Shown here: positions 1,644 to 5,293 of the stretch, in pieces
Position numbering within the stretch: position 1 is the first letter of the stretch
How the letters are laid out: each line of letters starts with the position of its first letter
NCBI GenBank assembly: GCA_038826135.1
Contig: JAWBON010000067.1
Coordinates: 1 to 6,297, forward strand
DNA length: 6,297 nucleotides
Direction: 5' to 3'
From: Candidatus Odinarchaeota archaeon
Lineage (GTDB): Archaea > Asgardarchaeota > Odinarchaeia > Odinarchaeales > Odinarchaeaceae
The notes under the pieces: generated by a model
Told to the model about the DNA's origin: nothing
The model's database searches: none
Seen by the model: only the letters and a program-made list of their open reading frames with translations
Program-made: the position numbers and the translations under genes

Positions 1644-2231
1644 TCACCGTATAAGTTTAGGTTCACACCTCTGATTCTTTAAAGCCTCAACAAGCTGTGA
1701 AACTGTGTCTATCCTGTCAGAGAACTCGGTGCAACACCAACCGAACTCTGAGAGATGATGCGCGTCTGAGCCGGCTGTAGCTGCAACATGCTTTTTAAAA
1801 GCTGCTGCTAGCGCATTTTCATCAATACTGAATCTTAGTCTATCCGACACCTCGATCCCGTCAACTTCAAGATCATATACTTTATCACCAAGGTATACAG
1901 GCCATTCCCTAAACGGATGAGCTGCTACAGCAACCCCGCCTGCTCGGTGAATTGCTTCTATCATTATATTCGCGGGTCTATTCGGTTTCAAAACATTTTT
2001 TAAACCATAGACTAGCAGCTCACCCTCTAAAACTGTTAGCTCATAGCCTAGGAAGACTTTAATATCGTATTTACGGGCGATTTTAAACTCTTCCGCAAAA
2101 TTAGCGATGACATTATGATCCGTTAAAACAATGCATTCGATACGGTAGGATGGAGCTGCCTCAAATATCTCTTTGAGAGTAAGCTCCGAGCAGGGTGAAG
2201 CTGTGGAGTGAACGTGTAAGTCTATTAGAAA
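1644..2231 (-). CDS. PHP-domain (polymerase and histidinol phosphatase family) metal-dependent phosphoesterase, ~195 aa; extends 80 codons upstream of the ORF-track call and has no canonical start codon
   Basis: Manual translation upstream of TTG 1991 stays open to a TAG at 2237-2235 and reads (N)FLIDLHVHSTASPCSELTLKEIFEAAPSYRIECIVLTDHNVIANFAEEFKIARKYDIKVFLGYELTVLEGELLVYGLKNVLKPNRP. PHP motifs DLHxH, TDHN, GxE, AHPFR and GSDAH are present. Confidence 0.88.
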   Translation of the reverse strand, partial: FLIDLHVHSTASPCSELTLKEIFEAAPSYRIECIVLTDHNVIANFAEEFKIARKYDIKVFLGYELTVLEGELLVYGLKNVLKPNRPANIMIEAIHRAGGVAVAAHPFREWPVYLGDKVYDLEVDGIEVSDRLRFSIDENALAAAFKKHVAATAGSDAHHLSEFGWCCTEFSDRIDTVSQLVEALKNQRCEPKLIR

Positions 2232-2238
2232 GTTCTAT

Positions 2239-2245
2239 ACCTCCT
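2239..2245 (-). promoter_or_regulatory. Shine-Dalgarno site AGGAGGT of the PHP gene
   Basis: Minus strand reads TAA(stop of upstream gene)-ATTT-AGGAGGT-ATAGAAC-TTT-CTA-ATA-GAC-TTA-CAC. Confidence 0.75.
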
Positions 2246-2249
2246 AAAT

Positions 2250-2897
2250 TTATTCTTTCACTATTCTATTAAGCCAACTATCAAGTTCTTTCAACAGCTT
2301 GTTAGCGTACTCTGGAGGTATAGGCTTATTCTTAGGGAGATGCTTGATTTTCTGAATCCACTCATGCATTTCATAGAAAACAGGGTGGTGAGGCACCCAG
2401 CTCATTAACGTATCCCGTGTTTCAGCGATCTTATTAATTAGTTCACCAGCAGTCAACTGTTCTCTAACAGCTTTACCTAAACTGTTTAACGTGTTCTCTG
2501 TAGCTGTTTTATTAGCCTCCTGTCTGACAGTGCCTCTGGCTGTTTCTTTAACTTGAGGTTGAGGTTCTTCAATCTCTTGAACAACAATCCCCTCCACGCT
2601 GGGCTTGCTCTTAACAATTTTCTCTAATTCCAGTACCCTATCTATAAGTTTCTCCAAAGTCTCCTTCGTAGTGAATCTTAAGCCTCTAATAGAGACCTCT
2701 AAACTGTCTAGTTTACTAATATTTTTCTGAAATTCGTCAAGCTGGTTTTGAACTAATCCTAATCTGTCAATGACGCTTAGACCAAACTTCTCTAACGCTT
2801 CCTTTACTTTAGAGAAGTTCTTAATATTCTCTTGAAGAACATTCTTTATTTCAATTAAAGATTGTTCAAGCTTGCTCTCATCTTTGGTAGACAACAC
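2250..2897 (-). CDS. Coiled-coil protein with a C-terminal Vps28-CTD-like four-helix bundle (putative ESCRT-I-related protein); start GTG 2897 or TTG 2894
   Basis: aa ~5-96 are heptad-rich and helical, aa ~97-130 are a P/E/Q-rich linker, and aa ~131-215 form four predicted helices. HEWIQKIKHLPKNKPIPPEYANKLLKELDSWLNRI aligns without gaps to the human VPS28 C-terminus as recalled from memory. The CDS itself is near certain; the confidence value is for the product call. Confidence 0.55.
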   Translation of the reverse strand: MLSTKDESKLEQSLIEIKNVLQENIKNFSKVKEALEKFGLSVIDRLGLVQNQLDEFQKNISKLDSLEVSIRGLRFTTKETLEKLIDRVLELEKIVKSKPSVEGIVVQEIEEPQPQVKETARGTVRQEANKTATENTLNSLGKAVREQLTAGELINKIAETRDTLMSWVPHHPVFYEMHEWIQKIKHLPKNKPIPPEYANKLLKELDSWLNRIVKE

Positions 2898-2900
2898 CCC

Positions 2901-2906
2901 TCACCT
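2901..2906 (-). promoter_or_regulatory. Shine-Dalgarno site AGGTGA of the coiled-coil gene
   Basis: Minus strand AGGTGA-GGG-GTG-TTG; the 6-nt spacing to TTG 2894 favours that start. Confidence 0.7.
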
Positions 2907-2920
2907 AAAACTTGTATTAA

Positions 2921-4210
2921 TTATATTTCTTTCAGGTTTATAAATGCGCAGACACTGCAAAGCTCATCATAGCTTAAGCCACCGTGCTGCCCCAGTAGAG
3001 TAGCGTCCACTATCTTATTTTCACCTTCATGGTTTTTAAGTGAAGCGGTATGTTCACCCGTTAACACGCATATAATATCCCCCATCCTCTGTTTCACTTT
3101 AAAATTACTGGGTTTCTTATGAAAGATTAATTTCGCTAGTTCTTCATATTTGAAGACAAATCCTCTATCTGAGACGGTTTCTGAAATGAGATTGAACGCT
3201 TCGTCAAACATTCCAGGTTTGGTGTAAAAATGAAGTGTTCTACCAGATTTACCGACACCCCCTCTAAAATATTTAGCGTTAACTTCAGAGTCGATGTCTT
3301 GCATGTTAAGAATTTTACTTGGATCAACTGTCCGCTGACCGTGATCCGAGGTTAAAACTAGCACTGTTTTCTCAGCTACTTCTTCTGTTAAACCCAGTTT
3401 TATAGCTTTCAAAGATTCCTCAAACATTTTAAAACTCATTTCAATTTGAGGGCTTTCAGGACCGTATTTGTGAGATAACTCATCAACCATATCCAAGTAG
3501 ATGTGAATAAGCTTTTTCTTATTATCTTCTTTACAGAGCAGTTTATTAGCTAAGCTGAAAGCGTCGATGATATCACCGAAACTCACTATATTGTTATGCA
3601 GTATAGTTGAGAGCCCTGTAGCTGCGATCGAATAATTATATAAGGAGACATCCATTAAACTGTCTTTACTGATGTTTTTATGAATAGACTGCTCCCAGAG
3701 ATAGTTTGAGAAGTTAAGCCCCAGTTTAGTAAGTGAGTCTCTGAATTGAGCTTTTTCACTTGAAAACTTTAAAGTATCTATAATAGTTCCAAGCTCCGCT
3801 ATCAGTATTTTGTAACCTAGTAAACCATGCTGTTCAGGGTATTTCCCAGTGTGTAAACTCATAATCGCTGTTGAAGTTATCGTGGGGAAAACTGATGACA
3901 CTGGAAAGTAGAAAGCGTTTTCTACAAAAAACCTGGAATACTTATTAAACTGTTTAAAACCCAGAGAGTCCATTACTATAAAAACTATGTTTTCAATATT
4001 ATCGTTTAAAATATCCGCTAAAATGTTTTTCAAACGACTGTCTGAGTAAAGTGTTTCACATTCACCTAATTCTAAGCCGAGTGAACGTATTAAAGTCGGT
4101 AGAATCATCGTTATGTTTCGATCATAATTAGGTCTATAAATCCCGTCGAAACCCTTAATAGGTTTAATAAACTGGGTTAATTCCTCAATTAATTTGTCAC
4201 GGTCTAACAT
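2921..4210 (-). CDS. Alkaline phosphatase superfamily protein, type I phosphodiesterase/nucleotide pyrophosphatase-like, probably cytoplasmic
   Basis: VFIVMDSLG (metal Asp), SSVFPTITSTAIMSLHTGKYPEQHG (Thr nucleophile region), YLDMVDELSHKYGP, LTSDHGQ and GQHGGLS: the expected metal ligands appear intact. No signal peptide is visible. Confidence 0.88.
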   Translation of the reverse strand: MLDRDKLIEELTQFIKPIKGFDGIYRPNYDRNITMILPTLIRSLGLELGECETLYSDSRLKNILADILNDNIENIVFIVMDSLGFKQFNKYSRFFVENAFYFPVSSVFPTITSTAIMSLHTGKYPEQHGLLGYKILIAELGTIIDTLKFSSEKAQFRDSLTKLGLNFSNYLWEQSIHKNISKDSLMDVSLYNYSIAATGLSTILHNNIVSFGDIIDAFSLANKLLCKEDNKKKLIHIYLDMVDELSHKYGPESPQIEMSFKMFEESLKAIKLGLTEEVAEKTVLVLTSDHGQRTVDPSKILNMQDIDSEVNAKYFRGGVGKSGRTLHFYTKPGMFDEAFNLISETVSDRGFVFKYEELAKLIFHKKPSNFKVKQRMGDIICVLTGEHTASLKNHEGENKIVDATLLGQHGGLSYDELCSVCAFINLKEI

Positions 4211-4265: not shown

Positions 4266-4706
4266 TTGAACATGCCTAATCTTGGTAATATTAAGCGTTT
4301 TATTATTTTAAATCTTTCAAGAAAAAGAATCCTATCATCCCTTGTAATTTTAATCATCGGAATAGTAGAGTTAACCGTCTCCATGGTTTTTTTCTACCCT
4401 AATACAAGTTTAGATAATATTATAAGAGGTTTTTTCATAGCGTTTTACGGGGGAATAGAATTTATAACAGGCTTGGCGGGGCTTATTTTAAAGTTTAAAT
4501 CAGACTTTGACAGATTCGCACAGGTAACAAGATATATAATTATCATACTTTTATTTATACCGTACATAGCTGTATTAGCAAGTTTCCTAATCCAGGACCC
4601 TGTTCTAACAGCTTTCAGATTAAACGCCTTGATTTTAAGCTTAGTATCACTTATAAATTTATCATCAATACCAGTAATCAAACACTTATACAGTAAAGAA
4701 CCCTAA
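4266..4706 (+). CDS. Uncharacterised membrane protein with four predicted TM helices
   Basis: Hydrophobic segments ILSSLVILIIGIVELTVSMVFFY, GFFIAFYGGIEFITGLAGLIL, YIIIILLFIPYIAVLASFLI and LNALILSLVSLINLSSIPVI. GGGGG (4254-4258) lies 7 nt before TTG 4266; ATG 4272 is an alternative start. Confidence 0.75.
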   Translation: MNMPNLGNIKRFIILNLSRKRILSSLVILIIGIVELTVSMVFFYPNTSLDNIIRGFFIAFYGGIEFITGLAGLILKFKSDFDRFAQVTRYIIIILLFIPYIAVLASFLIQDPVLTAFRLNALILSLVSLINLSSIPVIKHLYSKEP

Positions 4707-5293
4707 TAATTAAAATATTTTCTAAGCTCACCCTCACTCATACCACTAAGCCAGTTAACCCATCCAGCTAAAAAAACAGCCGGCCTCTCGTTAACTATCT
4801 TCAAAAACTTATCAACAGAAACATCCACAGTATCATAAGAAGTATCCAACTCGTAAACATCACTCGCACCATAAGCGCGAACCGCGTTAAAAGTACATGA
4901 ACCAAGAATCTCAGCCTGCACATTCTCAAATATTTTACCCCTACCATAACCTTTCAACCCCAGTCTCCTCTCCAGAACAGCAGGATGAGTTCTCAAAACA
5001 ATACAGCAATCAACATATTTTTTAGGAGTTAAATCCCCGAAATGTCCCTCAACTATAACAACCCCCACAAGACCGGATAAAAACCGGTTTAAAAACCGCT
5101 TCAACCTAGCCTCCTCAACAATAAAAGTATCTCTACACTCATCCCTGCCTGTAATAGCACCACCCTCAGCAGCCAGCTCCGATAAACTGAATAATCTCAC
5201 ACCAAGCCTTTGAGCAGCAAGTCTAGAAACACTAGTTTTACCAGTGCCAGGCGTACCGCTTATAACTATCACCTTAACACATCCACTGTCCAA
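4703..5293 (-). CDS. Archaeal AK6/Fap7/hCINAP-type adenylate kinase/ATPase; real start possibly GTG 5272 (MIVISGTPG...)
   Basis: Walker A ISGTPGTGKT, VVIVEGH (hhh[DE]xH motif) and LRTHPAVLERRL..KGY...KIFENVQAEILG, typical of the AK6 family. Confidence 0.9.
   Translation of the reverse strand: MDSGCVKVIVISGTPGTGKTSVSRLAAQRLGVRLFSLSELAAEGGAITGRDECRDTFIVEEARLKRFLNRFLSGLVGVVIVEGHFGDLTPKKYVDCCIVLRTHPAVLERRLGLKGYGRGKIFENVQAEILGSCTFNAVRAYGASDVYELDTSYDTVDVSVDKFLKIVNERPAVFLAGWVNWLSGMSEGELRKYFNY

Follow-up and report, generated by a model that had tools for sequence, protein, structure and literature searches.

How a protein ending in what resembles the C-terminal domain of Vps28 (Vps28-C) comes to be encoded away from any gene of the ESCRT machinery (the endosomal sorting complexes that are required for transport) is the question raised by a 6,297-nucleotide stretch of archaeal DNA, referred to here in its entirety as the window. 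The window comes from contig C67 of an Odinarchaeia genome bin (1.26 Mb, 105 contigs, 93% complete), and the gene in question, P0001, lies on its minus strand. Among prokaryotic proteins, Asgard ESCRT components are those most closely related to the sorting machinery of eukaryotes, and a first-pass annotation made from the sequence alone had proposed that P0001 joins a stalk to a Vps28-like bundle, either as an ESCRT-I-like adaptor or as a repurposed paralog. The results presented below establish that P0001 is not the canonical Vps28 but a separate paralog, and very probably no member of the ESCRT-I core. We favor, at a probability of roughly 55%, the reading that this non-ESCRT-I paralog tethers a coiled coil to Vps28-C and acts as a docking adaptor. 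The gene and the parts of it that carry the homology are as follows.

2250..2897, minus strand: P0001 gene, encoding the coiled coil plus Vps28-C protein (open reading frame of 215 aa from GTG 2897)
2253..2537, minus strand: Vps28-C-like four-helix bundle, aa 121-215 (hhalign, Foldseek, VIA-align and ESM Atlas)
2358..2420, minus strand: best-conserved bundle core, aa 160-180, TRDTLMSWxPHHPVFYEMxEW (family alignment)

AlphaFold2 predicts the bundle helices at aa 121-145, 150-167, 173-185 and 195-214 with a pLDDT of about 90, and a model of the domain alone, built on a 67-sequence alignment, reaches a pLDDT of 91.2 and a pTM of 0.80. A word-indexed search returned 11 relatives of P0001, all unnamed or 'hypothetical' and none of the 11 with a precomputed Pfam domain; the named relatives are all Odinarchaeia, with OdinLCB4_001165 of Ca. 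Odinarchaeum yellowstonii among them. Two blocks are strongly conserved in their alignment, aa 71-79 and aa 160-180, and the second aligns with the ...HPV..E..EW... segment of the canonical Odin Vps28.

To place the bundle we compared its family profile with 21 Asgard Vps28 proteins gathered via the Pfam model. The hhalign comparison gave probabilities of 93.8-95.4% (P 1.8e-7 to 1.8e-8), with the alignment falling on the C-terminal end of Asgard Vps28, whereas controls in which either profile was reversed or the target columns were shuffled (40 shuffles) yielded <= 2.3% probability and P >= 0.02. BLASTP of P0001 against the canonical Odin Vps28 produced a colinear match (E 7e-5), the family hidden Markov model (HMM) scored 29.9 bits on the same protein and, in a six-frame search of an entire closed sister genome, it found the Vps28 C-terminal domain at E 3e-4. 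Furthermore, in Asgard proteins of ~790 aa the Pfam VPS28 cut-off is passed on the C-terminal-domain half, and the family profile matches the same place.

Structure searches converged on the same domain. With the full-length model, the best Foldseek matches in the PDB were the Vps28-CTD entries 2j9w, 2j9v and 2g3k, and with the domain-only model 2j9w and 2j9v came first (TM 0.67-0.73). Among 48,161 representative chains, VIA-align placed 2j9u_A first (Z 12.5, root-mean-square deviation 2.4 A, 91/94 residues aligned), followed by a designed binder at Z 10.5, and ranked the domain-only model alike (Z 12.5), on a scale where helical bundles may reach Z about 13 by common arrangement alone. The ESM Atlas structure search returned eukaryotic clusters with PF03997 members at TM 0.71-0.72, and its feature search with the bundle returned a single unnamed Asgard cluster at 0.81, which serves as a lead only.

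Several results weigh against homology. A Pfam scan of P0001 found no VPS28 match even at E <= 1, and neither phmmer nor the family profile gave a significant match among PDB sequences, where the 67-sequence bundle profile reached Xenopus Vps28 (2j9w) at E 1.3. The Foldseek E-values for the Vps28-CTD entries are just 0.04-0.2, and because of these values and of the Z-scores that common arrangement may produce, the structural match taken by itself would be suggestive rather than decisive. The silence of Pfam, Foldseek E-values above 0.01 and the many designed or unrelated bundles that reach Z 9-10.5 are all consistent with an unrelated four-helix bundle behind a coiled coil, but such a chance resemblance is largely refuted and very unlikely: the profile P of 1.8e-8 is lost on reversal or shuffling, the HMM matches are reciprocal and fall genome-wide precisely at the Vps28 C-terminal domain, and Vps28-CTD came first in three independent structure searches. 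We therefore regard the P0001 bundle, with high confidence, as a genuine, divergent homolog of the Vps28 C-terminal domain.

On this point the first-pass annotation has held up well. Its proposal of a C-terminal Vps28-CTD homolog is borne out by the controlled profile comparison and by the fold, and its by-eye register (HEWIQKIK...SWLNRI) recurs in both the hhalign and BLASTP alignments with Asgard Vps28. It had placed the helical C-terminal domain at aa ~131-215; the domain is there, with its start about 10 residues earlier, at aa 121. Of the profile and structure searches that it had suggested, the former gave a divided answer, with no Pfam VPS28 match but a clear profile-profile match to Asgard Vps28 (P 1.8e-8), and the latter put Vps28-CTD at the top in Foldseek and VIA-align alike. 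Pfam matches of P0001 to MIF4G_like (E 0.019), BrxC_helical, HBS1_N and RecG_N were far under the cut-offs and were set aside as helical noise.

The separation of P0001 from canonical Vps28 is clearest in related genomes. Three other genomes of the genus each carry a full-length PF03997 gene (E about 1e-13, frames of 230-241 aa), and the canonical Vps28 proteins of sister genomes score 48-52 bits against Pfam VPS28. Canonical vps28 and a P0001 family gene coexist in four genomes (G001, G013, G024 and G044). In the closed sister genome (1,418,269 bp), the ESCRT genes run in the order vps23, vps28, vps22, vps25, vps4 and two ESCRT-III genes at 1,064-1,069 kb, in agreement with locus tags 14270-14300 of the purified Odin proteins (PMC9192718), and OdinLCB4_14280 is the Odinarchaeal Vps28 characterized by Hatano et al. 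2022 (PMC9192718). The P0001 ortholog of the closed genome lies at 239 kb, i.e. 825 kb from that cluster. In the window genome the ESCRT-III, Vps4 and Vps25 genes are on contig C57, which stops right after vps25; the assembly lacks vps28 for this reason, with no match to Pfam VPS28 (gathering threshold 24.5 bits) anywhere in the genome, and, the ESCRT cluster being cut by the contig end, none to Pfam EAP30 (Vps22) either. The window itself holds no ESCRT gene, as the first-pass annotation had observed and a Pfam scan of the window proteins bears out.

In a maximum-likelihood tree of C-terminal domains, every canonical Vps28, the Odin copy among them, falls into one clan (100/99) with the P0001 family outside it; the tree is unrooted, and the order inside the P0001 family is unreliable because long branches attach within this short-branched family. 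The family HMM scores higher on the Odin Vps28, which had raised the idea of a recent, Odin-specific duplication of vps28; that clan led us to reject it. The phylogeny suggested as a check by the first-pass annotation thus sets the canonical copies apart from the P0001 family, and since sister genomes encode canonical Vps28 separately, within their ESCRT cluster, the repurposed paralog was the right choice between the options it had offered. P0001 and Vps28 (PF03997; CTD structures 2J9U, 2J9V and 2G3K from yeast and 2J9W from Xenopus) share a bundle that is alike in sequence, by way of Asgard Vps28, and in fold, a flexible linker ahead of it and a similar overall length (215 aa, as against 229 aa in Odin Vps28). 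They differ in that Vps28 is detected by the Pfam model, is encoded beside vps23 and vps22 and has a headpiece hairpin with the steadiness box, whereas P0001 goes undetected, lies far off in an operon with two phosphoesterases and carries a continuous coiled coil of ~90 residues in place of the headpiece. The features of this N-terminal part are given here.

2610..2885, minus strand: N-terminal coiled coil, aa 5-96 (heptad count and AlphaFold2)
2661..2687, minus strand: RGLRFTTKE motif, aa 71-79, within the coiled coil (family alignment)
2538..2609, minus strand: flexible linker, aa 97-120 (pLDDT < 50, weakly conserved)

Residues 5-96 follow a single unbroken heptad register, with L, I, V, M or F at 69% of the a/d positions, a value reached in 1 of 2000 shuffles (average 48 +/- 4.5%), and AlphaFold2 with the family alignment models aa 6-96 as one helix at a pLDDT of about 70. 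Within this helix, R71-T76 are invariant and K78 nearly so in all full-length members of the P0001 family, and the conservation of RGLRFTTKE makes it a probable partner-binding site. The linker is disordered in the AlphaFold2 model, and residues 97-125 comprise five acidic residues, three prolines and four basic residues. The heptad-rich N-terminus of ~90 aa and the linker of the first-pass annotation are therefore both real, the label 'acidic/Pro' fitting the linker only roughly given its four basic residues. Its description of the N-terminus as a long stalk rather than a Vps28 headpiece also agrees with these data, as hhalign of the N-terminal half against the Vps28 N-terminal domain gave 1.8% probability (P 0.027); a specific homology of the stalk to Vps23 or Vps37, to which it had likened the N-terminus, is not supported, and the comparison with Vps23 (0.6%) equals its reversed control. 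Comparisons of the same half with NCBIfam Sel_Asgard and with the distant group gave nothing above the reversed control.

In a positive control, the Vps28 N-terminal domain matched the Vps23 steadiness box at 94.8% (P 5e-8). P0001 has no steadiness box detectable in this way, a non-detection that is not proof of absence. These comparisons bear on whether P0001 could replace canonical Vps28 on the Vps23 dimer and so form a second flavor of ESCRT-I. The colinearity of the BLASTP alignment with Odin Vps28 over about 200 residues, including an N-terminal KVKxxLEKxGLxV motif, an N-terminal stretch that the family HMM also gives on Odin Vps28 (domain E 0.001) and the similar lengths all speak for such an alternative subunit. 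We consider it quite improbable, as the N-terminal half is not significant against either the Vps28 N-terminal domain or Vps23 where a true Vps28 N-terminal domain does match the steadiness box, and the model is one long helix with no hairpin.

In the genomic setting of P0001, the immediate neighbors on the same strand are two phosphoesterase genes.

2921..4210, minus strand: upstream gene, AP-superfamily phosphodiesterase / nucleotide pyrophosphatase-like, 429 aa (PF01663 plus a PglZ-like segment)
1644..2234, minus strand: downstream gene, PHP-domain metal-dependent phosphoesterase (frame open from 2234)
2239..2244, minus strand: GGAGGT ribosome-binding site of the PHP gene, 5 nt past the P0001 stop

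The stop of the AP gene, which belongs to an Asgard-wide subfamily, is separated from P0001 by 24 nt, and P0001 from the PHP frame by about 15 nt, with a ribosome-binding site in each gap. The placement of GGAGGT indicates, at the level of sequence, co-transcription and coupled translation of P0001 and PHP. Five other Odinarchaeial loci, belonging to two genera, preserve the order and orientation AP -> P0001 -> PHP even though the proteins have diverged to about 36% identity, and a further contig (L058) keeps the triad with an unannotated middle gene of 195 aa that scores 183 bits against the P0001 family; the same contig retains the adjoining AAA_18 kinase. Full-length N-terminal regions with the invariant motif occur only where this triad is found. 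In Jordarchaeales (GCA_038861695.1, L059:4001-6618), by contrast, what sits between the AP and PHP genes is a GT2 glycosyltransferase and not a Vps28-C protein, and in Atabeyarchaeum the AP gene stands alone, with neither a PHP gene nor a P0001 family member beside it. Judging by gene order in these two arrangements, the AP-PHP pairing predates the Vps28-C gene that stands between the pair in Odinarchaeia.

This setting raises the competing view that P0001 is a genuine Vps28-C homolog but fully repurposed, serving the two metal-dependent operon enzymes, AP and PHP, as their scaffold or as a regulatory subunit in a pathway of phosphoesters, nucleotides or glycoconjugates, with no ESCRT contact. 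It agrees with a tight three-gene operon conserved at such identity, with an N-terminal region conserved in full only alongside that operon, with an enzyme pair that predates the insertion and has GT2 in the middle in Jordarchaeales, and with the absence of nearby ESCRT genes. The bundle core, however, is strongly conserved and has canonical Vps28 as its nearest known family in sequence, relatives of P0001 beside ubiquitin E2 genes or fused to small GTPases point to trafficking and ubiquitin contexts, and gene order in compact genomes may last without physical interaction. We hold full repurposing, the main rival of the docking-adaptor reading, to be somewhat unlikely.

Eukaryotic Vps28-C binds the ESCRT-II subunit Vps36. 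In the docking-adaptor reading that we prefer, the P0001 bundle would dock on the partner of canonical Asgard Vps28-C, most probably ESCRT-II Vps22/Vps25, and, since P0001 has no steadiness box, it would do so without joining the Vps23-Vps28 core, thereby bypassing that core of ESCRT-I. For the coiled coil, which carries the invariant RGLRFTTKE patch, the role would be to oligomerize, to hold a lineage-specific partner, or both, with the co-encoded AP and PHP phosphoesterases as the obvious candidate partners. The individual steps carry less confidence than the reading as a whole: docking on ESCRT-II by analogy is put forward tentatively, and direct binding of the operon enzymes, suggested by the operon, is doubtful. 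A three-chain complex prediction of AP, PHP and P0001, from each chain's own alignment and without controls, scored 0.00 and weighs neither for nor against such binding. Several results count against a docking role. Neither phosphoesterase of the operon is known to act with ESCRT, no ESCRT gene lies near P0001 or its orthologs in any genome examined (six loci), and the GT2 gene that fills the middle of the Jordarchaeales AP-PHP pair suggests that the operon serves the chemistry of phosphoesters or glycoconjugates and not the scission of membranes.

Vps28-C outside core ESCRT-I has been described before. In the text of Makarova et al. 2024 (mBio, PMC10936438), Asgard proteins carry Vps28-C apart from the ESCRT-I core, and such proteins are proposed to contact ESCRT-II without core ESCRT-I subunits. 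As in P0001, Vps28-C in this class is joined to another module and comes on top of a full vps28; the stress there is on adaptin-appendage, longin, TPR, Ig-like and HTH/PCI partners and on separate Vps28-C, whereas the partner in P0001 is a coiled coil. The novelty implied by the first-pass annotation was accordingly overestimated: the protein class is already known, and P0001 adds a member to it. What is specific to P0001 is the tight, conserved AP -> P0001 -> PHP operon as predicted from gene order; neither the operon nor the Odinarchaeial coiled-coil plus Vps28-C family is explicitly mentioned in the text and the part of the supplementary tables of that paper that we cover.

Yeast two-hybrid contacts of ESCRT-I with Vps22 have been reported for Loki- and Heimdallarchaeota, whereas Odinarchaeota Vps22 does not dimerize and some additional factor likely bridges ESCRT-I and -II in Odinarchaeota (Hatano et al. 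2022, PMC9192718). That P0001 is an enzyme-carrying ESCRT adaptor that brings AP and PHP to ESCRT-II/III, or that it or a paralog is this bridge, would be attractive, and we judge it improbable. If true, phosphoester hydrolysis (of a lipid head-group, nucleotide or glycoconjugate) would be brought to sites of membrane remodeling. The conserved operon provides concrete, testable candidate cargo for one Vps28-C adaptor, and with a thermophilic source lineage and Odin ESCRT-I and ESCRT-II already purified, binding is readily testable.

The P0001 family extends well beyond this operon. An exhaustive profile search of 1.84 billion representatives yielded 65 proteins at E <= 0.001, many of them matching over the bundle only, at their own C-terminus. 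Of 151 Asgard genomes sampled, 62 hold a match to the profile at the same threshold, mostly through proteins of 170-290 aa. By these profile matches, P0001 is a member of an Asgard-restricted, widespread coiled-coil plus Vps28-C family. A Pfam scan of 64 distant relatives returned coiled-coil-type families only, with VPS28 absent from the 25 commonest. A second Odinarchaeial paralog of 204 aa (C100:813-1424, minus strand; found at E 1.5e-11 and aligned by hhalign over 166 columns at P 3e-13) has a coiled coil and the same bundle, as P0001 does, but not the RGLRFTTKE motif context or the phosphoesterase operon. It is present in all four genomes of the genus (at 1,210,359-1,210,916 in the closed genome) and in the sister genus (290 aa), next to a Rieske protein, a radical-SAM protein and genes of no assigned kind. 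No AP or PHP homologs were found in the neighborhoods of this paralog and of distant family members.

A third arrangement is a GTPase fusion of 363 aa (L035:655-1743, plus strand, equal to C10:21726-22814), in which an Arf/Ras-like GTPase domain at aa 113-278 precedes a weak C-terminal match to the bundle, at positions 141-216 of the family profile (E 0.008 genome-wide). Next to the fusion are genes for an HD-domain protein and for a Ras-family GTPase of Rab-like type (L035:3-545, E 1.8e-58), and the closed sister genome has a counterpart of 378 aa at 123,878. Coiled-coil plus Vps28-C genes of 199-226 aa from another Asgard family lie divergently beside a UQ_con (ubiquitin-conjugating E2) gene in three genomes, at the following E2-adjoining loci.

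L041:342-806 / 1153-1830
L042:1474-2070 / 2395-2895
L045:1474-2151 / 2473-2973

The remaining relative is NCBIfam NF045535, 'Sel_Asgard', named as a putative selenocysteine system protein, whose model end matches the C-terminal 56 residues of P0001 at 24.7 bits (E 1.8e-5), under its curated cut-off of 132 bits. By hhalign, Sel_Asgard is related to the bundle of the P0001 family (P 4e-6) and to that of Vps28 (P 1.4e-4), and its proteins exceed the cut-off in 80 of the 151 Asgard genomes. Membership of P0001 in Sel_Asgard would account for the 56-residue match and the hhalign P, and is nonetheless highly improbable given how far the score falls from the cut-off, the Sel_Asgard-type gene that the window genome has of its own on C72 (L055:2003-2662, minus strand) and the tree, in which Sel_Asgard is set apart as its own clan (98/91). 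A further Sel_Asgard-type gene is found in G001 (L056:3955-4611, minus strand). Sel_Asgard appears to be another Vps28-C-related family: it resembles P0001 in size (about 215-250 aa), in its restriction to Asgard archaea and in its related C-terminal bundle, and differs in forming its own clan and in lying near vps28 in one Asgard family (7-10 kb away on the same contig), whereas P0001 sits in a phosphoesterase operon. The 'selenocysteine' label is doubtful, because no SepSecS (TIGR03531) turned up in the closed sister genome, even though that genome carries a Sel_Asgard gene over the cut-off.

In Asgard proteins of ~790-800 aa (G137:C153:8111-8686, G143:C3:131104-131679 and some 15 more), the end region scores over the Pfam VPS28 cut-off on its C-terminal-domain half and is matched along its whole length by Sel_Asgard. 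Among the ESM Atlas clusters, one made up of 788-aa Asgard proteins that carry PCI, E3_UFM1_ligase and DDRGK domains has a TM of 0.70 to the bundle model. These ~790-aa proteins may be UFM1-ligase-like proteins fused to a Vps28-like module.

An Odinarchaeial genome of 1.3-1.4 Mb thus encodes five or more proteins whose bundle is of Vps28-C type, namely the canonical Vps28, P0001, the second coiled-coil paralog, the GTPase fusion and the 'Sel_Asgard'-type protein, a pattern that supports the idea of Vps28-C as a reusable docking module.

The start sites of the operon genes merit comment. P0001 ends with a TAA stop codon at 2250-2252, and a candidate ribosome-binding site precedes the gene.

2901..2906, minus strand: Shine-Dalgarno-like AGGTGA (direct sequence reading)

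The spacing of this element fits TTG 2894 better than GTG 2897, making TTG 2894 the likely true start and the product 214 aa long, the form in which P0001 is recorded in public protein collections. For the PHP gene, although its GGAGGT site is perfect, no ATG, GTG or TTG lies ahead of the essential DLHVH motif (window 2220-2252, minus strand), where the frame begins at AAC 2234 after TAG 2235-2237; its orthologs start with a TTG that either coincides with the L of LHVHS or lies just upstream of it, and it seems likely that the gene uses a non-canonical start codon. The only sequencing runs that match the P0001 locus are hot-spring metagenomes, with no RNA run among those listed.

An AAA_18 / putative kinase gene (NF003012-like) lies at 4703-5293 on the minus strand of the window and at L058:3363-3953 on the plus strand. 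In the window, a small membrane-protein open reading frame on the other strand stands between the AAA_18 gene and the AP gene, which are direct neighbors in L058, and the AAA_18 gene may belong to the same functional neighborhood as the AP gene. An asparagine-synthase-like gene is found upstream of the AP gene in L059 and L057. There are hints in gene content that the AP-PHP pair may serve a glycoconjugate or phosphoester pathway.

Two further observations concern contig C57 of the window genome. Its Vps4 gene (L003:4979-6631, plus strand) encodes 551 aa and has an intein within its AAA domain (aa 177-327, Pfam Intein_splicing), and the Vps4 of the closed sister genome has 383 aa and no intein. 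Beside the ESCRT-III genes, L003:1953-2846 (plus strand) has a product of 298 aa that combines a longin-like domain (Fuz_longin_1) at the N-terminus with an Arf-like GTPase domain, a layout found also in the closed sister genome.

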